Positions 13,409 to 28,312 of a stretch of DNA of 64,000 nt are shown piece by piece; positions within the stretch are counted from its first letter, which is position 1; each line of letters starts with the position of its first letter. The stretch lies in NCBI GenBank assembly GCA_965228025.1, contig CBDDGX010000032.1:35113-99112 (forward strand). Direction: 5' to 3'. The stretch comes from Polaromonas sp. GTDB taxonomy: Bacteria > Pseudomonadota > Gammaproteobacteria > Burkholderiales > Burkholderiaceae_C. The notes beneath the pieces were generated by a model. That model was not told the DNA's origin. It worked only from the letters and a program-made list of their open reading frames with translations, and ran no database searches. A program made the translations under genes and the position numbers.

Positions 13409-14099
13409 GTGAAGCGTCGGCAGCTTCGTTGCCGCCTTGCGCTGCCAGATACTGCAGCAAGTCGGTCAGGCGGGCAATTGAGCAGACATGCAAGCCCAAC
13501 TGGTTTGTGACATATTGCACAGCGCTGTAATCCACGTCAAGGCCGTTTTCGGTCGCTTTTTCCTGCCTGTCCAGCGCAATCGCCACGGCATGCGGTATCG
13601 CGCCGGCCGCCTTGATGATGGCAATGGACTCGCGCGCAGCTGTACCTGCCGACATCACGTCATCAATGATCAGCACCCGGCCCCTGACCGGCGCGCCGAC
13701 CAGGGAACCGCCTTCTCCATGGTCCTTGGCCTCCTTGCGGTTGTAGGCGAAAGGCATGTTGCGGCCCAGCCTGGCCAGCTCCACAGCCACTGCCGCCGCG
13801 AGGGGAATCCCCTTGTAGGCCGGCCCGAAAATCATGTCGAACTGCAGGCCGGTGGTCTTCTCTTCGATGAGCAGTTGCTGCGCATAAAATTGCGCCAGGC
13901 GGCCCAGCTTGGCGCCGTCGTCGAACAGGCCCGCATTAAAAAAGTAGGGGCTCAGGCGCCCGGCTTTGGTCTTGAACTCGCCAAACCGCAGCACGCCTGA
14001 TTCGACCGCAAACTGCACAAACTCAAGTGCCAGTTGACTGTCAGCTTCCGGGTCTGCATTGTTGTTTTTCGGCCCAGGCATTGGCGACAACTTACTCAT
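13353..14099 (-). CDS. pyrE: Orotate phosphoribosyltransferase
   Basis: [37 protein letters not shown] motif [11 protein letters not shown]. Confidence 0.97.
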
Positions 14100-14314
14100 G
14101 GATCAATCCTTGTCTGAGCGGCAGGACATGAACACCCGGGATATACCCCAAGGCCAATCACTCTCCCATGCCGCGTGAGGAATTGTATGTGCGCGACAGC
14201 CCCCAAAGGCAACGCAGCCCTGCGGGAAATGCCTGCGATCCCAGGATGAACCGTTTTGTTGCGAAGATTCATTTCAGGCCACCCCTTTTTTTGGGCTTTC
14301 CCGATTCGTCTTTT

Positions 14315-14324
14315 TGGTATACCA
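14315..14324. promoter_or_regulatory. Putative GntR (FadR-subfamily) operator
   Basis: Perfect palindrome TGGTATACCA in an AT-rich promoter of an operon that ends in a GntR/FCD regulator. Confidence 0.55.
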
Positions 14325-14376
14325 TAATACCGAATTCCAATTAAGATATTAAAACTTTTTGTATCGGAGACATTCA

Positions 14377-15375
14377 ATGAAGCCTTTATCACTTCCCCTC
14401 GTATTGATGCGTCAACTACGCAAGATCCCCGCCTGCCTCGCGCTAGCGCTCGGTGCAAGCAGCGCTTTCGCCGCATATCCCGACAAGCCGATAACACTGG
14501 TGGTGCCCTTCGCCCCCGGGGGCAGTTCGGACATCGTGGCGCGAAGCATTGCGCCCATGCTGGGCGAACGGCTGGGGCAAGCCATCGTGATCGAGAACGT
14601 ATCGGGCGCGGGCGGCATGCTGGGCACACAACGCGCAGTTCGTGCAGCCTCTGACGGCTACACCATCCTGCTCGGCTCAGGCTCGGAGATCCTGATCAAC
14701 AAGGTCATCAACCCGGCGCTGGCTTATGACGGCGTACGCGACCTTGCACCAGCCGTGTTTGTCGGAACGGGCCCGATGGTCCTGGTGGGCAAACCCGGCC
14801 TTCCCGCCTCCAATATGAACGAATTGCTGGCACTGGCACGCGCCAAACCCGGTGCTTTGAGTTACGCCTCGGCCGGCAACGGCACGCCCATGCACGTGGC
14901 CGGCGAGTTGCTGAAGATGCGCGCCAACATCTTCATGACCCATATTCCTTACCGCGGCGCTGCGCCTGCGCTGGTTGACCTGCTGGGCGGGCAGATAGAC
15001 CTGGGTGTCTCCACGCTCAGCGCTGCCCAGACCTACATCCGCTCGGGCAAGATCAAGGCATATGCCGTGACCAGCTCGAAGCCCTCCGAACTCGCGCCCG
15101 ACATTCCTGCACTGGGCGCAGTGAAAGGCCTGGAAGGTTTTGACCTCGGTGTCTGGTTCGGCCTGTTCCTGCCGGTCAAGACATCACCGGAAATCGTGCA
15201 AAAAGTGCAGGCTGCCGCGCAGCAGGTGCTGGCCGATCCGGCCGTCCGCAAAAAACTGGCAGAGCAAGGCATCAGCGCCTCGGGCGCTTCGGCAGAAGAA
15301 CTGCGCAAATTCATGGCCGTGGAGGTCGAAAAATACCGCGCCGTGGTGAAAGCCGCAAAGATCACCGCCCAATAG
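14377..15375 (+). CDS. Bug/TctC family tripartite tricarboxylate transporter substrate-binding protein
   Basis: YPDKPITLVVPFAPGGSSD, VIENVSGAGG, HIPYRGAAPA. Confidence 0.93.
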   Translation: MKPLSLPLVLMRQLRKIPACLALALGASSAFAAYPDKPITLVVPFAPGGSSDIVARSIAPMLGERLGQAIVIENVSGAGGMLGTQRAVRAASDGYTILLGSGSEILINKVINPALAYDGVRDLAPAVFVGTGPMVLVGKPGLPASNMNELLALARAKPGALSYASAGNGTPMHVAGELLKMRANIFMTHIPYRGAAPALVDLLGGQIDLGVSTLSAAQTYIRSGKIKAYAVTSSKPSELAPDIPALGAVKGLEGFDLGVWFGLFLPVKTSPEIVQKVQAAAQQVLADPAVRKKLAEQGISASGASAEELRKFMAVEVEKYRAVVKAAKITAQ

Positions 15376-15404
15376 ACCAGCACTCACCCAACGCAGGATT
15401 TTTT

Positions 15405-15995
15405 ATGCAAGACAACGGTATCCGCAAGCTCGTTTCCTTCCAGGAGGACACACTGATCGAAGGCCACAAAAAGGCGGCTGTGCCGCTGAAGATGTTCGGC
15501 GTCGCAGCCGTGCTGAAAAACCCGTGGGCAGGCCGCGGCTTCGTCGATGATCTCAGCCCTGAAATACGTGCACTGGCGCCCGTACTGGGCAAGCTCCTGA
15601 CAGACCGCATCCTCGCCATGGCGGGATCGGGCGAAATCATCGAGGCCTACGGCAAAGCCGCAGTCGTGGGCAGCAGCGGTGAGGTTGAGCATGCTTCTGC
15701 ACTGATCCATACGCTTCACTTCGGCAACTTCTACCGCAAGGCGGTAGGCGCCAAAAGCTATTTAAGTTTTACCAACGTGCGCGGCGGCCCCAACTGCTCC
15801 ATCGCCATCCCGATGATGCACAAGCACGACGAAGGCATGCGCTCACACTATTTGACTCTGCAATTTGCCATCAACGACTCGCCCGCACCGGATGAAATCG
15901 TCGTTGCGCTGGGCGCCTCCATAGGCGGCCGGCCTCACCATCGCATCGGCGACCGCTACAAGGATCTTGCGGAGCTGGGCAGCAATGAAACCTGA
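15405..15995 (+). CDS. DUF1185 ('amino acid synthesis' family) protein
   Basis: AAVLKNPWAGRGFVDDL, EAYGKAAVVG, GEVEHASALIH, DEIVVALG...GRPHHRIGDR recalled as this family. Confidence 0.8.
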   Translation: MQDNGIRKLVSFQEDTLIEGHKKAAVPLKMFGVAAVLKNPWAGRGFVDDLSPEIRALAPVLGKLLTDRILAMAGSGEIIEAYGKAAVVGSSGEVEHASALIHTLHFGNFYRKAVGAKSYLSFTNVRGGPNCSIAIPMMHKHDEGMRSHYLTLQFAINDSPAPDEIVVALGASIGGRPHHRIGDRYKDLAELGSNET

Positions 15996-16854
15996 GATCG
16001 ACACCCTGAGCGGCAAGGCCCCGGGCGGCCTTGCCGGCGGCACGGCCTACAGCGTTTACGGATCGGGAGAACCCGTCGTACTGATACATGGCGTCGGCAT
16101 GGAGCAGGCGGCATGGAAGGCACAGGTCGAGGAGCTCGCCGCCGACTACCAGCTGGTTGTCTACGACATGTTCGGCCACGGCAAAAGCCGGCTGCCGCCT
16201 GAAGGCGTCACGCTCGCGGCGTATGCAGACCAGCTGTCGGATTTGCTCGACCATCTGGGCATCACCACCGCCAATGTGATTGGCCATTCGATGGGCGCCC
16301 TGGTAGCGCTTGAGTTTGCTTTGGGCCGTCCGCACAGAACCATGCGCGTAGCCGCATTGAATGCGGTTTTCATGCGCACGCCTCAGCAGAAGGCCGCCGT
16401 GATGGAGCGCGCTGCAGCCCTGAAGGATGTCGGTGTCAGCGCCACGGTCGATGCGACCATCGCCCGCTGGTTCGGCACCCCCGTGCCCGACGCCCTGCGT
16501 GCATCCGCGCGCATGATTGCCGGCATTCTCGCGAATGTAAACGCCGCAGGCTATGCACGAACCTACCAACTCTTTGCCACCTGCGACAGTGTTCATGCAG
16601 ACCGGCTTGCTTCGCTGGAGATGCCCGCACTGTTCATGACCGCCGAGTTCGATCCGAACTCCAGCCCGGCCATGTCCGCCGAGATGGCGCACCGCGCGCC
16701 GCAGGGCGCACTCTCCGTGATCCCCGGCGCGCGCCACATGATGAACGTGACGGATCCGCAGGAGGTCAATCGCAGGCTCCGCAACTTCCTTGGGACGCCC
16801 ATCAAACCCCGTCGTCAGCCCGACACGGCCACGCAAGCAGCAGCGCGCACCTGA
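15985..16854 (+). CDS. Alpha/beta hydrolase (PcaD-like)
   Basis: LIHGVG oxyanion motif, nucleophile GHSMG, C-terminal His (GARHM). Confidence 0.88.
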   Translation: MKPEIDTLSGKAPGGLAGGTAYSVYGSGEPVVLIHGVGMEQAAWKAQVEELAADYQLVVYDMFGHGKSRLPPEGVTLAAYADQLSDLLDHLGITTANVIGHSMGALVALEFALGRPHRTMRVAALNAVFMRTPQQKAAVMERAAALKDVGVSATVDATIARWFGTPVPDALRASARMIAGILANVNAAGYARTYQLFATCDSVHADRLASLEMPALFMTAEFDPNSSPAMSAEMAHRAPQGALSVIPGARHMMNVTDPQEVNRRLRNFLGTPIKPRRQPDTATQAAART

Positions 16855-16934
16855 ACAACGCCTTTGCATGTGCAGCCATGCAGGCAAGCCACTGCCTTCC
16901 TGCATTGCAGAGCCGAGCAAACACGAAAGACCCC

Positions 16935-18431
16935 ATGAGCACCCTCAGTTATGACGACCTCCTGGTCAGCCGCTGCTATATCGATGGCCGCTGGGTAGAC
17001 GGCACCGATCACTTCGATGTCACCAACCCGGCCAGCGGAGCGGTCATCTCTACCGTGCCCTTGCTGGGTGAGGCAGAGACACAGCTCGCGATAGAGGCTG
17101 CCCACCGCGCCGGCGCACTCTGGAGGAAATTGCCTGCGCGTGAGCGCGCCCGGCTGATGCGGCGCTGGCACGACCTGGTGATGGCCCATGCCGACACGCT
17201 GGCGCGCATCCTCACCGAGGAGATGGGCAAGCCGCTCGCCGAAGCGCGGGGCGAGATCGTCTATGGCGCATCCTACATTGAATGGTTTGCCGAAGAAGCC
17301 AGGCGCGTCTACGGCGACGTGATTCCCTCACCACAAGACAACAAGCGTTTTATCGTGCTCAAGCAGCCTGTTGGCGTGGTGGCCGCCATCACGCCATGGA
17401 ACTTCCCCAATGCCATGCTGGCGCGCAAACTCGCCCCGGCGCTGGCCGCCGGCTGCACGGTGGTGGCCAAGCCCGCCGAGCAAACACCGCTGTCCGCCCT
17501 GGCCCTGGCCAGGCTGGCGGAAATCGCCGGCATACCGCCGGGCGTCATCAATGTGCTGACAGGCGATCCGGAGGCGATAGGCGGCGAGATGAGCCGCAAC
17601 CCGCTGGTGCGCAAGCTGACCTTCACCGGGTCCACCGAGGTCGGCAAGCTGCTCATTCGCCAATGCGCGGACACCGTCAAGCGGGTGAGCATGGAGCTGG
17701 GCGGCAACGCGCCCTTCATCGTCTTCGACGACGCCGACATTGACTCCGCCGTGCGCGGCGCCATGGATTCCAAATTTCGCAATGCGGGGCAGACCTGCGT
17801 GTGCGCCAACCGCATTTATGTGCATGACCGTATCTACGACACATTTGCCGAGCGCCTCGCAGGTGAGGTGGCCAAACTGCAGGTCGGCAATGGCATGGAT
17901 GCCGGTGTCACGCAAGGCCCATTGATCGACGCCAAGGCACTGGCCAAAGTCCGGGCGCACATCGCCGATGCGCTGGCCCATGGTGCAGTGCTGGCCACGG
18001 GCGGATCGCCCCATGCGCTGGGCGGATCTTTTTTTGAGCCCACGGTATTGCGCGATGTCACGCCGGCCATGCGGGTGGCGCGCGAGGAAACCTTCGGCCC
18101 GGTGGCGCCGCTTTTCCGCTTCAGGGATGAAGCAGACGTGATTGCACAGGCCAACGCATCGGAAGCCGGACTGGCCGCTTATTTTTTCACCACTGACATG
18201 GCGCGCGCCTGGCGCGTCGCCGAGGCGCTTGAATGCGGCATGGTCGGCCTCAACACCGGCCTGATCTCTTCGGAAGTCGCGCCCTTCGGCGGCACCAAAC
18301 AGTCCGGCTACGGCAGGGAAGGATCGCACTACGGCATTGACGATTATCTGGATGTGAAATACTTCTGCATCGGCGATCTCGACCAGGAACCCCACCGTGC
18401 CATCCCCCAAACCCAATTCGCTCAAGGTTGA
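16935..18431 (+). CDS. gabD: NAD(P)-dependent succinate-semialdehyde dehydrogenase family
   Basis: ITPWNFP, FTGSTEVG, ELGGNAP, catalytic GQTCVC, EETFGP. Confidence 0.85.
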   Translation: MSTLSYDDLLVSRCYIDGRWVDGTDHFDVTNPASGAVISTVPLLGEAETQLAIEAAHRAGALWRKLPARERARLMRRWHDLVMAHADTLARILTEEMGKPLAEARGEIVYGASYIEWFAEEARRVYGDVIPSPQDNKRFIVLKQPVGVVAAITPWNFPNAMLARKLAPALAAGCTVVAKPAEQTPLSALALARLAEIAGIPPGVINVLTGDPEAIGGEMSRNPLVRKLTFTGSTEVGKLLIRQCADTVKRVSMELGGNAPFIVFDDADIDSAVRGAMDSKFRNAGQTCVCANRIYVHDRIYDTFAERLAGEVAKLQVGNGMDAGVTQGPLIDAKALAKVRAHIADALAHGAVLATGGSPHALGGSFFEPTVLRDVTPAMRVAREETFGPVAPLFRFRDEADVIAQANASEAGLAAYFFTTDMARAWRVAEALECGMVGLNTGLISSEVAPFGGTKQSGYGREGSHYGIDDYLDVKYFCIGDLDQEPHRAIPQTQFAQG

Positions 18432-19092
18432 CCGCAGCGCAAAAACGTTGCGGGAGCTCACGCTGGAAAAAATGCGCGACGCCATCTTCAGCGAACACTT
18501 CAAGCCCGGCGAACGTCTGGTGGAGCGTGACCTGTGCGAGCAGCTTGATGTCAGCCGCTCGGTGGTTCGCGAGGTCTTGCGGCATCTCGAAACAGAAGGT
18601 CTGGTCGAGTCAGGCCAGCAAAAGGGCCCTGTGGTGGCCAGCCTCGATGCTGATCGTGCAGCACAGATCTACGAAATACGCGCCCTGCTCGAAGGCCAGG
18701 CCGCCCGGCTCTGCGCAGAAAAAGCCAGCGACGCGGCGATAGGGCAACTGGCAAAACTGAACGACCGCATCCAGGCCGCCTTCAAGGATGACGACTTCCG
18801 GGAAGTGCTGTCCCGGACCACCGCTTTTTACGAGGCGATGTTCAGCGCCGCTGGGCTGGCCGTGGCGTGGGACATCGTGCAGTCGCTCAATGCCCGAATC
18901 AACCGCCTGAGGTCCATGACCATCAGCTCCAGCGGGCGCAGCGCCGAAGCCGCAGAGGAAATGGCGCGCATCGTCAAGGCCTTGCGGGCGCGCGATCCCC
19001 AGGCCGCGCAGGAGGCCTCGCAGGCGCATGTCCGCCGGGTGGCACAGATCGCCGCATTACGGCTTTCAGGCACAGGCGCACAGACGCGCTGA
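18397..19092 (+). CDS. GntR family regulator with FCD domain
   Basis: PGERLVERDLCEQLDVSRSVVREVL HTH; IYEIRALLEG. Confidence 0.92.
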   Translation: MPSPKPNSLKVDRSAKTLRELTLEKMRDAIFSEHFKPGERLVERDLCEQLDVSRSVVREVLRHLETEGLVESGQQKGPVVASLDADRAAQIYEIRALLEGQAARLCAEKASDAAIGQLAKLNDRIQAAFKDDDFREVLSRTTAFYEAMFSAAGLAVAWDIVQSLNARINRLRSMTISSSGRSAEAAEEMARIVKALRARDPQAAQEASQAHVRRVAQIAALRLSGTGAQTR

Positions 19093-19153
19093 GTCCTGCG
19101 GGCTTGCGTTGCAAGGGCCCCTATACTGGGCCGCCCGATCATGGAGATGACCC

Positions 19154-20178: not shown

Positions 20179-21084
20179 ATGAAAATTTGCGACAACAGGC
20201 TGGCGGGGACGTTCAGGCCTGCATTGATGTGTACGGCGCTGCTGGCGATGGCGCTGGCCCTGCCCTCCATGGCCCTGGCGGCCGACAAAACCCCAGCTCG
20301 ACGCACCGTGCACATTCGCGGCTCTGTGTCATTCGCGGGCATCGTGCAGGCCCTGGCGGAGCAGTACATGCGCAACAACCCTGGCACTGCGGTCGTCGTC
20401 AGTGGCGGCGGCACATCGCGCGGCTACCTGACACTGCTCGACAACACGGCCGACATGGCCATCGTCAGCGGATCTGCCTCTGAAGACACCGAGGACGAGA
20501 TCGCCCGCAGCGGCGTCAAGCTGGTCAATGTGCCCTTCCGCCAGGTGGCGATGGCGCCTGCGGTTCATTTCAGCAACCCCATCAGCGACCTCAGCCTGGT
20601 GCAGCTGCGCGAAATTTTCTCGGGCCGCATCAGCAACTGGAAGGCTGTCGGCGGCAAAGACGTACACATCAACGTCTACATCGGCCCGCCTGGTGACGGC
20701 ATCACCAACGCCTGGAACGACAAGGTGCTCGGTGACACGGACACCTACACGCCCCGCGCGCGCAACGCCGAACTCGAACAGCGGATTGCCGGGGTCGGAA
20801 GCGACCCGGCAGGCATTACCTATCTCGCCACCGAGTCGCTGAAGAACCAGGAGCTCAAGGTCCTGTCGGTGAACAAGGTCATGGCTGGCGCCGACAGCGT
20901 GGCCAGCGGGCGCTACGTTCTGCTGGCACCGCTGATGTTTATCACGCGGGAAAAACCGTCACCCGAAGCGCAGAAATTCCTGCAGTTCGTTGGCAGCCTG
21001 TCGGCACCGATTTCAAACTCGGTCTTTGCGCTGCCACCCGCACCGGCCAGACCAGCCAACCCGGCTGCATCGGGCACGCGATGA
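20179..21084 (+). CDS. PstS-like periplasmic binding protein A (divergent)
   Basis: Signal peptide; IRGS, VSGGGTSRG, HFSNPISDLSLVQLREIFSGRISNWKAVGG, SGRYVL match the PstS/PBP_like_2 pattern. Confidence 0.8.
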   Translation: MKICDNRLAGTFRPALMCTALLAMALALPSMALAADKTPARRTVHIRGSVSFAGIVQALAEQYMRNNPGTAVVVSGGGTSRGYLTLLDNTADMAIVSGSASEDTEDEIARSGVKLVNVPFRQVAMAPAVHFSNPISDLSLVQLREIFSGRISNWKAVGGKDVHINVYIGPPGDGITNAWNDKVLGDTDTYTPRARNAELEQRIAGVGSDPAGITYLATESLKNQELKVLSVNKVMAGADSVASGRYVLLAPLMFITREKPSPEAQKFLQFVGSLSAPISNSVFALPPAPARPANPAASGTR

Positions 21085-21914
21085 AAAGACGCTATCTCGC
21101 GGGCGGACTTGCCGCCGCCCTGGTCGGTGCCGCCGCCTACCCCGCATGGCAATGGGTGCAGCTGCGCCGCAGGCCGGCCGGCCAGAATGCGCTGCTCATA
21201 GGTGGCGCATCCGCGATGTACGACCTGAACATCGCGCTGGGCAGGGAGTTTGAAAAACGCTATGGCGTGAAAGTCATCGTCGAACGGGGCGGCTCGCTGC
21301 AGGGCCTGCTGGCCGCCAAGCGCCATGCCATCGACATCGCCGCCATGGCCCGCGACCTTGAAGGCGCGGAAGCAGAGCCGCAGGCACACAACCACCTGAT
21401 TGCACGGGATGCGATTGCCATCGTGGTGAATGCCAAAAACCCGATCCGGCATCTCAGGCAGACACTGGTCCGAGACATCCTGACCGGCAAAATTGACAAC
21501 TGGAAGACGCTGGGCGGCCCCGACCGGCTGATCGAAGTGGTGATGCGCCCACGCCATACCTCCACCAGCCGCTACGTCAGCGAGGTGGTTCTTGCAGGCG
21601 CAGACCTCTCGCTGAAGTCGCACTTCAGGAAAACCCGTGACGAACTGCTGGACTTCATCCGCCAGCACCCGGACGCCATAGGCTGCGTGGCAACGGACGA
21701 TGGCGGTTTGCCTGCGGACATCCCGGCCCTTGAAATCGACGGTATTCCCATCACGCGCGAAACCATCCTCAGTGGGCGTTACCCTTTCGAGCGCTCCCTG
21801 TACCTGATGACCTACGGCAAGGCACGCAAGGAGGTGCTTGACTTCATCGCCCTGGCGGAATCACCCGACGGCCAGGCCATCGTCGACCGCTCCGGTTTCA
21901 TACCGGTCAGATAG
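21081..21914 (+). CDS. PstS-like periplasmic binding protein B
   Basis: IGGAS, GGSLQG, DAIAIVVNAKNPI, ILTGKIDNWKTLGG, RPRHTST, SGRYPFERSL. N-terminal KRRYL plus hydrophobic stretch (Tat signal or anchor). ATGA overlap. Confidence 0.82.
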   Translation: MKRRYLAGGLAAALVGAAAYPAWQWVQLRRRPAGQNALLIGGASAMYDLNIALGREFEKRYGVKVIVERGGSLQGLLAAKRHAIDIAAMARDLEGAEAEPQAHNHLIARDAIAIVVNAKNPIRHLRQTLVRDILTGKIDNWKTLGGPDRLIEVVMRPRHTSTSRYVSEVVLAGADLSLKSHFRKTRDELLDFIRQHPDAIGCVATDDGGLPADIPALEIDGIPITRETILSGRYPFERSLYLMTYGKARKEVLDFIALAESPDGQAIVDRSGFIPVR

Positions 21915-21933
21915 CAGCAGGTACGAGCAGCAT

Positions 21934-23280
21934 ATGGCCAACGAAGCACGCGGAATACTCAACGACTGGCTCACGCGCATGCAGCGCAACGACCGCCTGC
22001 GCAGGGCACTGGCCATCCTGGCCATCCTGGGGCTGCTGGGCATCGCCATGCACTACGTGTATGAGGTGCTGCCCAGGACCTACGCGCTGAAGATCACCGG
22101 AGGCGACATCCTCGGCAACCGGCACTACCTGGCAGGTACCTTGCGCGACGACATCGTGCCGCTCGGCGTGCGTCTGGATGTATTGCCGACCGACGGTTCA
22201 CAGGAAGCGCTGTCGCTGGTGTCACAGGGCAAGCTCGACTTTGCGCTGATACAGGGCGGCCTGGAGCTGCCTTACCCGAATGTGTCGCATGTGGCCAACC
22301 TTGCGCCCGAGCTGCTGCACTTTCTCGTCAGCCCCGACGTCAAGGACATTGCCGGCATGCGCGGCAAGCGCATCAACCTGGGCAGTAAACGCGGCGGCAC
22401 GCGGGTCATCGCCAAGCAGTTGCTCGAATTTTCAGGCATGCGCGACGGCGTGGACTACGTTGAAACCAACCTCAGCACTGAAGACCTGCTGGCCCTGCGC
22501 AAGGACCGCGTGCCCGAGGTCATCGTCATCACCTCCTTCGCACCTTCCAACGTGGCGGACTACATCGTCAAGCAGTATGGCTACAGCCTGCTGGAGATCC
22601 CTTTCCCCAACGCCCTCGCGCTGCGCCAGGGCTGGGTGGCGGACACCAAGGTCATGGCCTATATGTACAGCGTGCAGCCGCCCGTGCCGCCGCGTGATGT
22701 GCGGACTGTGGGCGTCAACCTGCAGCTGGTCGCGAACTCGAACCTGGACCCGCGCGCCGTGTTCAAGGTGCTGGAAGGCGTTTACAGCCCCGACCTGCAG
22801 ATGCACCTGAAGATGAAGTTTGATGAAGACAAGATCCTGGAGTCATCAAGCTATCCGCTGTCTGCCGGCACCCGGATGTTCATGGACCGCAAGAACCCTT
22901 TCCTTTCACAGGCCACGCTCAAGAAGGTCGAGGCGCTTTTTGGCCTGGTGCTGTCGGTGGCCTCCACCCTGATTGTGGTGTTCAAGTGGTTCAAGGGTGC
23001 GCCGCCCGAGGTGGTCAAACCCGAGACCGACGATGCATTTTTTGTCGTCCTGATCGAACGTGTGCTGGCCGTGGATGCGGCCGTCGATGCGGTGCCGGAC
23101 GACCCGCCGCCCCCGTCGCAACTCGCTGCCTGGCAAAAAGAACTCTCCGACATCAAGGCGACCGCGATGCGGCGCCTGACAGCCAACGGACTGCTGGCCA
23201 ATGCCAATCTCGTGCCGCAGCTTTTTTCGGCCATCACTGACTCCCGTGCACGGCTCGATTTTATGAAGGACAAAGCATGA
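21934..23280 (+). CDS. TAXI-family solute-binding domain flanked by two TM helices, with a C-terminal tail
   Basis: ITGG, TDGSQEAL, GKLDFALIQGG, ELLHFLV, GKRINLGSKRGGT. TM near residues 25-45 and a second TM (ALFGLVLSVASTLIVVFKWF). Confidence 0.75.
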   Translation: MANEARGILNDWLTRMQRNDRLRRALAILAILGLLGIAMHYVYEVLPRTYALKITGGDILGNRHYLAGTLRDDIVPLGVRLDVLPTDGSQEALSLVSQGKLDFALIQGGLELPYPNVSHVANLAPELLHFLVSPDVKDIAGMRGKRINLGSKRGGTRVIAKQLLEFSGMRDGVDYVETNLSTEDLLALRKDRVPEVIVITSFAPSNVADYIVKQYGYSLLEIPFPNALALRQGWVADTKVMAYMYSVQPPVPPRDVRTVGVNLQLVANSNLDPRAVFKVLEGVYSPDLQMHLKMKFDEDKILESSSYPLSAGTRMFMDRKNPFLSQATLKKVEALFGLVLSVASTLIVVFKWFKGAPPEVVKPETDDAFFVVLIERVLAVDAAVDAVPDDPPPPSQLAAWQKELSDIKATAMRRLTANGLLANANLVPQLFSAITDSRARLDFMKDKA

Positions 23281-24035
23281 CAACACACCTTCCCGGCACC
23301 GTTAGACGCGTGGGCACAGCCCTTGTCTGGGTGGCTGCGATTGCACTGACCGGCTGCGCCTCGGTCGCACCATCTGCCACCTCGACCAAGGCGGTTTATG
23401 AAGCGGCGATTGCCGACGCCGCCGTGGCCAGCCCGCGCAAGGTCTCGCCCCTGATGCCGCTGCCGGCCGGCGAAAAAGTTCGGGTAGTTTCCTGGGTGAC
23501 GGAAAGCCGCACGCCATGCAAGGCACCCGACACCAGCTGCGCCACCACCACACCGCCTGACCGCATCTGGGTGACGCTGGCTGGCGAGGTGCAGGCGAGT
23601 TGCCGTGCCTGGGGCTTGAAAGGCGATGCATTACGCCAGCGCATTGAACAGCTGCTCGGCCTGCCCATGGACCCGCCGCCACAGTTTCGCAAGGCGAAGT
23701 TTGTAACCATGGAGCTTGCCCGTGATCGCCTCGACAGGCCCTGCCTGGGTGTCGATGACAGCAACCCGCAGGGGCCGGTCTGCACTGTCGGCATCCAGGC
23801 CAGCCGGGCGCCCGATGTGCGCGATTACGTGCTCAGGCAAATGGCGGACTCATTCGTGGTCGATGGCGCAGGCGGCCCCGGCTACCCTTTCACCCGTCTG
23901 GGTTACACCTACGACTGGAACCAGGTCAATGCCAGGCCCAACCACTACGGGGCCTCAGAATTTCTGGTGCAGGCCAGTACACCTGCAGCCGTGATCACGC
24001 AGCAGGATACCGACGCTTACTGCGCTGCGCCCTAG
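23277..24035 (+). CDS. Conserved hypothetical lipoprotein
   Basis: Lipobox ALTGC; RIEQLLGLP, RPC, GYPFTRLGYTYDW, YGASEFLV; ATGA overlap. Confidence 0.7.
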   Translation: MTTHLPGTVRRVGTALVWVAAIALTGCASVAPSATSTKAVYEAAIADAAVASPRKVSPLMPLPAGEKVRVVSWVTESRTPCKAPDTSCATTTPPDRIWVTLAGEVQASCRAWGLKGDALRQRIEQLLGLPMDPPPQFRKAKFVTMELARDRLDRPCLGVDDSNPQGPVCTVGIQASRAPDVRDYVLRQMADSFVVDGAGGPGYPFTRLGYTYDWNQVNARPNHYGASEFLVQASTPAAVITQQDTDAYCAAP

Positions 24036-24047
24036 TCGATCGACTCG

Positions 24048-24992
24048 GTGTCACTGCTGACCCGCTACCTCACTGACGCACTGAAGGCGCAGCTGTCACA
24101 GCGTGTGACACCCAACGGCTACCGGCTGGAGGATGTGACTCGTTCCGGCGTGCGCCATGCCGACAGCCATATCGGTATCTATGCGCCTGACTTCGAGAGC
24201 TACGACATTTTTCGTGAGCTGTTCGGGCCGATAGTTGAAAACTTCAAGGCGCCGGCCCCTGCACATCACACCGATCTGGCATACATTGATCCGGCTGCTG
24301 TCGTTTCCACGCGGATCAGGGTGGCGCGCAATCTCACCGGTCATGCGTTTCCCTCCGTGATGTCAAGGCAGCAACGCCTGGCTGTGGAGGAGGCCATCAC
24401 GCAGGCCTGCAAAACACTGGCACCTGACTTTGAGGGCACGGTCACGCCGCTGGGGCACCTGCCACAGGCCGCTTTAAATGACATGGTTTCAAAGCGACAG
24501 GCCTTTGGGCCGGACGACAAATACATGGCCGCAGCAGGCATCCATGATGACTGGCCGCTTGGACGGAGCGTCTTCAACACACACGCCGGGCATCTGTCTA
24601 TCTGGATCAACGAAGAAGACCACCTGCGCGTGGCCGTGGTCATGCCAGGGGCCTGTGTTGCTGCTTGCCAGGAGGCGATGACCTTCGTCATGTCGCGCCT
24701 GGCTGCGTCGCTTGATTTCTGCTCGGATGCAGAGTTTGGCTACCTCACCAGTTGCCCCAGCAATGTCGGCACCGGACTGCGTGCCAGCTACCGGATAGAC
24801 AAGAGCCTGAAAGCGCCGCAAACAGGCACGCTGGAGCGGCTGGAGGCTGCGGGCTACCTACAGCTGCGCTCACCGTCGGGCGAACATGCCGCGCAAGGCG
24901 GTGAGCTGGTTGACGTGGGCCTGCGCCGACGGGTGGGTCTTTCCGGGCGCGACACGCTCGAAGGCATGAAGGCCCTGCTGTCGCGGCGCTGA
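24048..24992 (+). CDS. ATP:guanido phosphotransferase (phosphagen/arginine kinase-like, with N-terminal domain)
   Basis: SLLTRYLT, SG..DSHIGIYAPD, STRIRVARN, WP.GR, WINEEDHLR, GYLTSCPSNVGTGLRAS, RSPSGEH, RRRVGLS. Confidence 0.9.
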   Translation: MSLLTRYLTDALKAQLSQRVTPNGYRLEDVTRSGVRHADSHIGIYAPDFESYDIFRELFGPIVENFKAPAPAHHTDLAYIDPAAVVSTRIRVARNLTGHAFPSVMSRQQRLAVEEAITQACKTLAPDFEGTVTPLGHLPQAALNDMVSKRQAFGPDDKYMAAAGIHDDWPLGRSVFNTHAGHLSIWINEEDHLRVAVVMPGACVAACQEAMTFVMSRLAASLDFCSDAEFGYLTSCPSNVGTGLRASYRIDKSLKAPQTGTLERLEAAGYLQLRSPSGEHAAQGGELVDVGLRRRVGLSGRDTLEGMKALLSRR

Positions 24993-25009: not shown

Positions 25010-25969
25010 TCACGATCCGGTTTTCTCAGGCGCGGTGCGCACGCTGAGCACCATGGTGAAGGCCAGAACGCCGACCACGACACCGAGCGACGCCCAGACC
25101 GGGATCTTGTACACATCAACCAGGCACATCTTCACCCCGATGAAGACCAGAATCGCAGCCAGGCCGTAGTTGAGCAAATGAAATTTACCGGCTACAGCTG
25201 CCAGCAGGAAGTACATCGCGCGCAAGCCCAGGATTGCAAAAACATTGCTGGTCAGAACGATGAAAGGGTCGCTGGTGATTGCAAAGATGGCGGGTATGGA
25301 GTCAACCGCAAAAATCACGTCCGTCAGCGCGACCAGGCAGATCACCATAAAAAGCGGGGTGGCGATCTTCTTTCCGTTTTCCAGCGTGAAGAATTTTTCG
25401 CCATCGAAACCCTGGCTGACCGGCAGCACGCGCCGCAGCAGCTTGAGCGCCGGGTTGTCATTGAGGTCCGGCTCCTTTCCGGCCGCCCACCACATCTTGA
25501 TGCCGGTGAGCACCAGGAACAGGCCGAAGACATACAGTACCCAGTGGAACTCCTGCAGCAGCCAGCCGCCCACCAGGATCATCACCGAACGCAGCACAAT
25601 CGCGCCGATGATGCCTATCATCAGCACGCGCTTCTGGAAGGCCGAGGGCACCGCGAAGTAGGTAAAGATCATCAGGAAGACAAAGATGTTGTCGACAGCC
25701 AGCGACTTTTCGATCAGGTAGCCGGTCAGGAACTCCAGGGACTTCTCATTGGCCACACTGGTCGAGCCGGTGCTGTCCCTGACGGCCCACCAGAAAAGCG
25801 CGTTGAAGACGAAGCTGAGCGCCACCCAGATCAAGGACCAGTTCAGCGCCTCCTTCATGCCAATGTCATGCGCGCCCTGTTTTTTCAGGACGACAAAATC
25901 GACGAAGAGCGAGACAGCCACGATGGCGACGAAGGTCGCCCAAAGCCACAGGGGCGCGATGGTTTGCAT
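25010..25969 (-). CDS. TerC/Alx family membrane protein
   Basis: EKSLAVDNIFVF, DVIFAVDSIPAIFAIT, TSNVFAILGLRAMYF. Confidence 0.93.
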   Translation of the reverse strand: MQTIAPLWLWATFVAIVAVSLFVDFVVLKKQGAHDIGMKEALNWSLIWVALSFVFNALFWWAVRDSTGSTSVANEKSLEFLTGYLIEKSLAVDNIFVFLMIFTYFAVPSAFQKRVLMIGIIGAIVLRSVMILVGGWLLQEFHWVLYVFGLFLVLTGIKMWWAAGKEPDLNDNPALKLLRRVLPVSQGFDGEKFFTLENGKKIATPLFMVICLVALTDVIFAVDSIPAIFAITSDPFIVLTSNVFAILGLRAMYFLLAAVAGKFHLLNYGLAAILVFIGVKMCLVDVYKIPVWASLGVVVGVLAFTMVLSVRTAPEKTGS

Positions 25970-27034: not shown

Positions 27035-28312
27035 TGGAGTGAGCCCCTGGGACTGGACCACGGAAAAGAGATGAACTGATGCGCTTGCTGGGCCCTCATA
27101 GAAGGAGAGGTCTATGTCATCAAGAGGTCCATATCGCAGGCACACTGCGCAGTTCAAGCTGCAGCTGTGCAGCGACATTCGTTCAGGCGCACTCGGGCGC
27201 CGTGATGCGCAGAAGAAGTATGCGTTGTCCGCCAATCTCATTCAGATGTGGCTGACGCAGTTCGATCGCGGTGAACTTAGCACCAAGGAGGTTGAGGCGG
27301 ACGTCATCGCCGAGTACGAGGCCAAGGTCGCCGCCCTGGAGCGCAAAGTGGGGCAGCTCACGATGGAACTGGATCTGGTCAAAAAAGACTACACGCCTGC
27401 GACTCGTGAGCGACAACGAGAACTCCTCCATCATCACCGGCCCGAAGCCTGCTCCATCCGACAGGGGTGCAAAGTGATTGAACTGCCGCGCAGCACCTTT
27501 TACTACCGTTCCATGGGCGACACCGACGGTTTGACAGATACCAAACTGGTCGAGCTCATCCAGAGCATTCAGGATGAGCTACCCGGCTACGGCTATCGAC
27601 GCGTCACGCACGAGTTGCGCCAGCGTGGCCATGTCGTCAATCACAAGCGAATCGCACGCCTCATGCGAATTCATGGCCTGGGCATAAAGCCGCACCGCCA
27701 GTTTGTTCGCACGACGGACAGTAACCACGAATCGCCGATCTTCCCGAACTTTTACCGCAACATGATCCCAAGCCGACCTGATCTGGCGTGGGTCGCGGAC
27801 TTCACGTAAATCCGTATCGTGACAGGTTTCTGCTACCTGGCGGCAATCCTGGATGCGTGCAGTCGCAAGGTTGCGGGCTACGCCATCTCCCGCCGCATTG
27901 ATACGCCGCGGGCACTGGCAGCGTTACGCTCAGCACTCGAGAGCCGACGACCACCGCCAGGGTGCATTCACCATACGGATCGCGGCTGTCAATACGCGAG
28001 CGACACGTACCGGCGAGCACTGCGGGAGGCCGGGCTTCGCGGCTCGATGAGCTCACCGGCCAATCCGTATGACAATGCTCAGGCAGAGAGCTTTATGAAG
28101 ACGCTTAAGGTCGAGGAGGTGTACTTGGCCGGCTACGAGACCTTCGCGGATGTGGCAACACGGTTGCCGCGCTTCATCGAAGAGGTCTACAACGCCAAGC
28201 GGCTTCACTCGGCACTTGGCTACCGTTCACCCAACGAATTTGAATTGCAACTTGCTCAGGAGGCGGCTTAGTTCTGATGAACCCGGCGGTCCAGTCCCAG
28301 GGGTTCACTCCA
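27035..28312 (+). mobile_element. IS3-family insertion sequence (inactivated)
   Basis: TG...CA ends; IRs TGGAGTGAGCCCCTGGGACTGGACC / TGGAGTGAACCCCTGGGACTGGACC (24/25); TTA duplicated on both sides. Confidence 0.92.
27114..28271 (+). pseudogene. IS3 transposase OrfAB with internal TAA (27807-27809)
   Basis: [30 protein letters not shown]; both halves are in the same frame. Confidence 0.9.

Follow-up and report, generated by a model that had tools for sequence, protein, structure and literature searches.

We describe a predicted compact phosphagen kinase encoded in a 64,000-nucleotide stretch of DNA from the freshwater betaproteobacterium Polaromonas sp. (contig CBDDGX010000032.1 of assembly GCA_965228025.1, positions 35,113 to 99,112), hereafter the window. 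The kinase gene is the last of 5 genes on the same strand, which are joined by overlaps or by intergenic gaps of at most 20 nucleotides. The 4 genes before it encode 2 binding proteins of the PstS family, a binding protein resembling the TAXI and NMT1_3 families, and a lipoprotein (Table 1). An earlier annotation made from the letters and open reading frames (the sequence-only reading) had called the fifth product a eukaryote-type arginine kinase (AK) or phosphagen kinase in a betaproteobacterium.

Enzymes of the AK type serve animals as quick-release energy stores. Bacterial AKs have been known since 2008; their role is largely open, and an ancient versus a horizontal origin is debated (PMC6429109, PMC11492440). 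Those that have been characterized belong to the delta-, epsilon-, and gamma-proteobacteria, to Ahrensia, and to Oceanithermus (Deinococcus-Thermus) (PMC6429109, PMC11492440). What is novel at this locus is the conserved gene context of the kinase.

Table 1. Features of the kinase gene, its upstream cassette, and the flanking DNA (window coordinates; aa, amino acids)
Feature	Position	Strand	Evidence or remark
Phosphagen (arginine-type) kinase, compact, two-domain	24048..24992	+	314 aa; GTG start, TGA stop; open reading frame, Pfam, PDB matches, AlphaFold2 model
N-terminal helical domain, residues 2-64	24051..24239	+	PF02807 (ATP-gua_PtransN)
C-terminal catalytic domain, residues 113-310	24384..24977	+	PF00217 (ATP-gua_Ptrans)
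Guanidino-specificity loop, D39-S-H-I-G-I-Y45 (Limulus D62-Y68)	24162..24182	+	no indel relative to Limulus and Anthopleura AKs
NEEDH motif (Limulus E224, E225, D226, H227)	24609..24623	+	invariant in 83/83 clade members
CPSNVGTGLR motif with reactive cysteine (C271) and R280	24753..24782	+	C, P, N, G, R invariant in 83/83
Flexible loop, R274 (R309)-E279 (E314)-R295 (R330), including clade-specific DVGLRRR	24867..24932	+	R309, E314, R330 invariant
First PstS-family (PBP_like_2) binding protein, signal peptide	20179..21084	+	PF12849, 113.2 bits; TIGR02136, 136 bits (below cut-off)
Second PstS-family (PBP_like_2) binding protein	21081..21914	+	PF12849, 100.6 bits; TIGR02136, 127.7 bits (below cut-off)
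TAXI/NMT1_3-like binding protein, 448 aa	21934..23280	+	PF16868; TIGR02122 (below cut-off)
Lipoprotein, 252 aa, lipobox LTGC	23277..24035	+	stop 12 nucleotides before kinase start
Insertion of about 5 kb	14087..19141		relative to loci L002 and L003
TerC-family membrane protein	25010..25969	-	adjoins the 125-aa open reading frame
Open reading frame, 125 aa	26040..26417	-	weak Ribosomal_S30AE/hibernation-factor-like match, 25.9 bits
IS3-family insertion sequence	27114..28271	+	about 2 kb downstream of kinase
IS3 first open reading frame, 231 aa	27114..27809	+	HTH_21 domain
IS3 second open reading frame, 150 aa	27819..28271	+	rve integrase-core domains

Domain content and predicted fold

Both Pfam domains of the phosphagen kinases, for which the sequence-only reading had proposed a profile search, score far above their curated cut-offs. 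PF02807 matches at 70.5 bits (E 1.7e-19; cut-off 25.7) over profile positions 5-67 of 67, and PF00217 at 110.8 bits (E 7.6e-32; cut-off 22.4). The first match bears out the claim that the protein carries the N-terminal helical domain missing from McsB. Among PDB sequences, full-length alignments link the kinase to the AKs of Limulus, tick, shrimp, and Anthopleura at E values of 1e-45 to 1e-51 per domain: residues 2-304 pair with Limulus 25-339 (E 3e-49), the tick enzyme reaches 6e-51, and each domain of the two-domain Anthopleura AK about 1e-47.

An identity as McsB was considered and rejected. The best NCBIfam McsB model gives 96 bits against a cut-off of 385, and the others give 50-95.5 bits against cut-offs of 381-679; PF02807 is present, and the full-length AK matches are stronger. 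Alignments to McsB, with NCBIfam models and PDB chains alike (E 1e-18 for the chains), begin only at residue 81-84 of the kinase. McsB of Bacillus, Geobacillus, and Staphylococcus shares the homologous catalytic domain PF00217, but it is without a PF02807 N-domain, has a C-terminal domain of its own, and is encoded in a ctsR-mcsA-mcsB-clpC context; the neighbors of the window kinase are instead PBP_like_2, NMT1_3, lipoprotein, and TerC genes.

Built on 94 homologues, the AlphaFold2 model of the kinase reaches a mean predicted local distance difference test (pLDDT) score of 91.1 and a predicted template-modeling (TM) score of 0.89, and the modeled fold is the two-domain, alpha plus alpha/beta fold of phosphagen kinases. 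Foldseek aligns it to structures of arginine, creatine, taurocyamine, and lombricine kinases with TM scores of 0.80-0.88; the top matches, at 0.86-0.88, are the AK transition-state complexes 1BG0, 1RL9, and 4BG4. We conclude from domain content and alignments that the product is a two-domain phosphagen kinase of predicted AK type, and not McsB.

With the AKs of Limulus (1BG0, 1M15, 1RL9) and other arthropods, the window kinase has in common the two-domain fold, the catalytic and phosphate-binding residues, the length of the specificity loop with S63, G66, and Y68, and the NEEDH and CP(S/T)N-G-T-x-R motifs. It is only about 31% identical to the 357-aa Limulus protein and 43 residues shorter, the N-terminus being reduced by about 23 residues, the inter-domain linker by 12, and the C-terminus by about 8; the first 2 of these reductions are specific to its clade. 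Further differences are the substitutions H185R, H284R, V283Y, N327L, R193K, and G64H, and the location of its gene in a bacterial operon.

Active-site residues

Residues were compared by aligning 83 close relatives (the clade) and 33 more distant kinases of bacterial or metagenomic origin with Limulus AK, whose numbering we use unless window residues are named. The sequence-only reading had found apparent equivalents of R124, R126, E225, R229, C271, R280, R309, and E314. All are present: they correspond to window residues R89, R91, E190, R194, C236, R245, R274, and E279, and R330 corresponds to R295. Conservation across the clade is complete (83/83) for R124, R126, E224, E225, D226, H227, and R229, and likewise for C271, P272, N274, G276, R280, R309, E314, and R330.

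The guanidino-specificity loop pairs D62, S63, G64, V65, G66, I67, and Y68 of Limulus with D39, S40, H41, I42, G43, I44, and Y45 of the window. Its length is that of an AK, as had been proposed, with no indel relative to the Limulus or Anthopleura enzyme. Within the clade, G66 is found in 83/83 members, S63 and Y68 in 82/83 each, and D62, kept in the window, is aspartate in 69/83. We take S63, G66, Y68, E225, E314, and C271 to hold L-arginine in Limulus AK (structure 1BG0), with S63 and Y68 binding the amino-acid end of the substrate. A change from G64 to histidine (H41) had been listed as a deviation; the change is there, but it is uninformative because position 64 varies both within the clade (S, A, T, H, R, or L) and among other bacterial homologues (S, H, D, or N). 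As a substrate-changing deviation it was rejected on the same ground.

Two other deviations are borne out and lie elsewhere. S122, H185, and H284 are the nucleotide-ring contacts of AKs (PMC12467219). Both adenine-contact histidines are replaced by arginine in the window, H185 by R150 and H284 by R249, and the DISNKRR stretch has become DVGLRRR (window residues 289-295). Across the clade, H185 is arginine in 59/83 members, whereas H284 is arginine in 42 and methionine in 35. Set against the 33 other bacterial kinases, the clade signature also includes T277 to S/A, V283 to Y/F/C, and R329 to N. Judged from the alignment, 2 of the 3 ring contacts are remodeled, while all the phosphate-binding arginines and the residues that position the guanidinium group are kept.

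Selection, start codon, and integrity of the gene

Pairwise dN/dS values for the kinase (ratios of nonsynonymous to synonymous rates; 28 pairs from 8 loci) range from 0.14 to 0.25, which places the gene under purifying selection. Relaxed selection, which the sequence-only reading had named as a possible refutation, and pseudogenization are rejected by these ratios together with the invariant catalytic residues.

The gene starts with GTG and, as had been noted, has no Shine-Dalgarno sequence. GTG, ATG, or TTG stands directly before Ser-Leu-Leu in all 16 related loci compared, usually 3-26 nucleotides after the stop of the upstream gene. Given this constancy of the start codon, we regard the short N-terminus as real. 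With the codon so close behind the upstream stop, translational coupling to the upstream gene is the best explanation for the absent Shine-Dalgarno sequence. In the window, the lipoprotein and kinase genes share a reading frame, with TAG and 4 codons between them. Read-through or fusion with the lipoprotein gene was considered and rejected, as the kinase carries a conserved start codon of its own; in 10 other loci with the same cassette, the upstream stop lies from 6 to about 30 nucleotides or more before the kinase start and the frames differ.

Phylogeny and distribution

A word-indexed search recovered about 85 clusters that are 47-87% identical to the kinase, all of 294-330 aa, after which identity drops to 38% or less. 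When 1.84 billion representatives were searched exhaustively with HMMER, the whole clade formed one 50% identity cluster (P0006) and every other match was at most 41% identical; bacterial proteins with both PF02807 and PF00217 numbered about 1,400 representatives at E<1e-10. The sources of the named clade members are Polaromonas, Rhodoferax, Caenimonas aquaedulcis, and metagenome-assembled genomes (MAGs) of Burkholderiales, and most members are annotated as hypothetical proteins.

The clade is monophyletic (support 100/100) on a long stem of 0.51+0.29 substitutions per site. Its sister is a single metagenomic protein, P0149 (100/99), whose gene is surrounded by transposase and integrase genes. 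Clade and sister are nested in a well-supported group (99/98) made up of unnamed single-domain kinases from metagenomes, about 320-350 aa in length, which a Kiritimatiellia sequence joins 2 nodes further out with weaker support (87/95). Animal arginine and taurocyamine kinases, Oceanithermus, and Deinococcota sequences fall elsewhere in the trees. The phylogeny that the sequence-only reading had called for thus returns an isolated bacterial clade that does not cluster with McsB, and the label "eukaryote-type" is true of the domain architecture but not of the ancestry, because the animal enzymes fall elsewhere.

Patchy distribution had also been anticipated, and it is pronounced: the kinase occurs in 3/37 genomes of the genus, in 2/401 genomes (201 genera) of the family, and in none of 24 other families of the order. 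The GC content of the gene is 0.618, compared with 0.615 for the window. All clade members seen are from Comamonadaceae, a family in which the gene is rare.

The characterized bacterial AKs (Desulfotalea psychrophila, Myxococcus xanthus Ark, Sulfurovum lithotrophicum) are likewise full two-domain AK homologues with a patchy distribution. They have been arranged in clusters A, B, and B' (Suzuki 2013; Fraga 2019), as summarized in PMC11492440 and PMC6429109. Relatives of these clusters, from Oceanithermus and Desulfobacterium, are at most 38% identical to the window kinase and branch apart from it. They also differ in length (about 340 aa compared with 314) and keep H284 and N327, both lost in the window. 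The host family and the operon context set the window kinase apart as well: the searchable literature holds no mention of an AK in Polaromonas, Rhodoferax, Comamonadaceae, or betaproteobacteria, though Fraga 2019 may list betaproteobacterial members, and the gene context is conserved. The compact kinase lineage is a distinct, undescribed branch restricted to Comamonadaceae.

The envelope cassette and its fifth gene

The first PstS-family protein carries an N-terminal hydrophobic segment. The TAXI-like protein has one such segment at its N-terminus and 2 at its C-terminus; its longest open reading frame begins at 21838, while gene calls in relatives give a protein of 448 aa. The 252-aa lipoprotein has no match among Pfam, NCBIfam, or PDB sequences, and its AlphaFold2 model (pLDDT 76) no fold match, the best E value being 0.29. 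Its gene occurs in exactly the same 3/41 relatives as the kinase. No terminator-like site was found on the plus strand between the TAXI-like and kinase genes in a scan whose promoter and terminator counts were at or below shuffle expectation.

The order of 2 binding proteins, TAXI-like protein, lipoprotein, and kinase recurs in 11 independent loci whose outer flanks differ. In a metagenome scan centered on the lipoprotein, only those relatives that are at least about 48% identical to it sit in this cassette; distant relatives of 25-36% identity lie outside it.

The lipoprotein family (window 23277-24035, loci L033-L112) is itself sizeable, with at least 409 metagenomic stretches, 6 invariant cysteines, and the invariant motif P-G-Y-P-x-T-R-L-G-Y-T-Y-D-W. 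Most of its distant members stand outside the cassette.

The fifth slot of the cassette may hold a short kinase, a long kinase, an anion symporter that binds cyclic nucleoside monophosphates (cNMP), a Crp-type cNMP regulator, or an unrelated gene. The long kinases, found in L032 (an alphaproteobacterial MAG, Rhodospirillaceae), L034, and L116, are of canonical type and 35% identical to the window kinase. P0176, which is 62% identical to the kinase of L032, directly follows 2 PBP_like_2 genes and an NMT1_3 gene in 3 further contigs. This lineage of 363-366 aa (the Rhodospirillaceae MAG contig SCTM01000261 and relatives) has in common with the window kinase the slot after PBP_like_2-PBP_like_2-NMT1_3 (-lipoprotein), yet it differs in its canonical length and in keeping H284 and DISNKRR. 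The cNMP-binding anion symporter occupies the slot in L031 and L045, the Crp-type regulator in L069, and the unrelated gene in L040. At 9 more distant bacterial kinase loci, neither the cassette genes nor the membrane-protein genes that precede other short-clade kinases (below) were found as neighbors.

Some details of the kinase-less cassettes deserve mention. The symporter is a 613-aa protein with cNMP_binding and Na_sulph_symp domains (L031:6779-8620, and L045), and the regulator is Crp-like, with cNMP_binding and helix-turn-helix domains (L069:6711-7607). Cyclic-nucleotide-binding modules thus recur around the cassette as well as around the kinase.

In maximum-likelihood trees, the long cassette kinases stand apart from the short clade, near a cnidarian AK. 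Taken at face value, this topology would mean that the cassette acquired a kinase twice. We do not advance 2 independent recruitments as a firm claim, as a single origin survives the approximately unbiased (AU) test: with the quick tree, the constrained joint clade was even better than the free search, and with the careful tree it was 45.6 log-likelihood units worse (p-AU 0.18). Whether by ancient linkage, reaching down to 35% identity, or by convergent recruitment, the association of kinase and cassette argues for a functional tie between them.

Proposed role and alternatives

We consider it probable that the gene encodes a catalytically competent AK, produced as the last gene of an envelope operon, whose phosphoarginine pool would buffer ATP. 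The enzyme would act in the cytoplasm, interconverting ATP plus L-arginine and ADP plus N-phospho-L-arginine (EC 2.7.3.3); arginine as substrate and ATP as donor are both inferred. Within the active site (window residues), the amino-acid end of arginine would be held by S40, G43, and Y45 in the loop of the N-domain. Placement of the guanidinium group would fall to E190, E279, and C236, and binding of the nucleotide phosphates to R89, R91, R194, R245, and R274. The protein would be made as the last, translationally coupled product of the 5-gene operon, presumably co-transcribed, whose other predicted products all belong to the envelope: 2 PstS-like proteins, a membrane-anchored TAXI-like protein, and the lipoprotein. 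A phosphoarginine pool might then buffer ATP, and possibly phosphate, in step with uptake or sensing by the envelope module; this physiological coupling is a proposal.

Several observations weigh against such a role. The ring contacts known from AKs are replaced at 2 of 3 positions (H185 to R, H284 to R or M), S122 being kept. N327, present in 33/33 other bacterial kinases, is phenylalanine in 72 and leucine in 9 of the 83 clade members, and R193, the inter-domain partner of D62, is lysine in 77/83, a conservative change. Compared with the other genes of the operon, the kinase changes 2-3 times faster, its dN/dS being near 0.2 and theirs 0.05-0.13. The envelope cassette is also not the only setting: 5 short-clade kinases lie 3-22 bp after a gene of about 490 aa for an MscS-type channel with a cNMP-binding domain (L001, L004, L006, L020 from Caenimonas, and L021 from Rhodoferax), and 2 clade members occupy yet other contexts. 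In L025, the kinase follows a different membrane protein, of 358 aa.

The remodeled ring contacts are the reason to retain a first alternative, which we rate as unlikely: an active enzyme of the same fold that works on another substrate pair, such as agmatine, homoarginine, D-arginine, or taurocyamine as acceptor, or a donor other than ATP. The clade-specific replacement of H185 and H284, together with V283 to Y/F/C, N327 to F/L, and R193 to K, would suit a changed substrate, as would the long stem of the clade. Yet the residues that hold L-arginine are conserved, the loop has AK length, and the phosphate-binding arginines are all invariant; an arginine side chain can stack on adenine as histidine does; and H185 is also absent (G, N, or K) from 16/33 other bacterial homologues. 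Because the phosphate- and guanidinium-binding residues are kept and it is the ring contacts that are remodeled, we prefer an AK with an altered adenine pocket, although that pocket (H185R, H284R/M) might admit a donor other than ATP.

Very improbable, in our view, is the reading as a protein-arginine kinase acting in the manner of McsB on partner proteins, for instance the cytoplasmic tails of the TAXI-like protein or of the MscS-cNMP channel. The kinase gene does always lie beside a membrane-protein gene (for the TAXI-like protein together with the lipoprotein, for the MscS-cNMP channel, or for the 358-aa protein of L025), and its C-domain is homologous to that of McsB. Against this stand the low scores of the McsB equivalog models and the presence of the N-terminal domain, which clamps small substrates and is lacking in McsB, along with the retention of S63 and Y68, binders of a free amino-acid end. 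The McsB-type C-terminal domain is missing, since the sequence stops after the catalytic domain, and no mcsA, ctsR, or clpC gene lies nearby in the window.

Least credible of all is a recent import from a protist or invertebrate, decaying or neutral, which could account for the animal AKs as best PDB matches, the very patchy distribution, and the mobile-element genes around the nearest outgroup, P0149, but which we reject: animal best matches are expected because PDB has no bacterial two-domain AK, no match exceeds 41% identity outside the clade, the clade is monophyletic, confined to Comamonadaceae, and placed within metagenomic kinases, the GC content equals that of the window, dN/dS is about 0.2, the catalytic residues are invariant, and the operon position is conserved.

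Beyond an AK that buffers ATP, we offer a wider and more tentative proposal: phosphagen kinases may be the cytoplasmic output module of an undescribed envelope system whose fifth gene is interchangeable, with phosphoarginine synthesis tied to transport or sensing. As part of this tentative scheme, the tie could be to uptake or sensing of a phosphate-like anion, or to ion or osmotic flux through the cNMP-gated MscS channel. If true, it would provide the first physiological clue as to why phosphagen systems are maintained in free-living bacteria. The repeated operonic link to envelope proteins spans kinases that are only 35% identical, and it recasts the role of the bacterial enzymes as testable hypotheses on how phosphate or anions are handled, on osmotic or ion flux, and on cyclic-nucleotide signaling. 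The invariant catalytic core with a remodeled nucleotide pocket constitutes a natural experiment showing which of the family's residues can be dispensed with. At least one carrier, Caenimonas aquaedulcis, is in culture, which makes genetics and 31P nuclear magnetic resonance feasible.

A separate observation concerns the MscS-cNMP setting: L001 and L004 are 2 contigs of one Rhodoferax MAG (JANXVI01), each with the channel gene followed by a short-clade kinase. These kinases are 59% and 64% identical to that of the window. The pair is either a genuine duplication or a product of mixed strains within the bin.

Local evolution and flanking DNA

Relative to L002, L003, and L005, nucleotide identity is about 86-90% in the lipoprotein gene; precisely where the kinase begins, it falls to about 70%. 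Between these 2 genes, dN is about 6-fold and dS about 2-fold higher in the kinase, and the genes downstream of it are entirely different among related loci. The drop in identity, the raised values, and the differing downstream genes place the kinase at the edge of a conserved block. The kinase allele of the window has probably also been exchanged by recombination.

Compared with L003 over 21838-24992, the window is 99-100% identical up to about 22600, about 78-92% identical up to 24035, and about 70% identical in the kinase, a profile that suggests at least 2 recombination breakpoints inside the operon.

Downstream of the kinase, the genes for the TerC-family protein and the adjoining 125-aa open reading frame are both missing from related loci, and the IS3-family insertion sequence lies in a stretch without counterpart in L002, L003, and L005. 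Upstream, alignments to L002 and L003 jump from 14079-14086 to 19142. The inserted segment encodes a TctC receptor, an AA_synth protein, an alpha/beta hydrolase, an aldehyde dehydrogenase, and a GntR/FCD regulator, and looks like an accessory catabolic islet.

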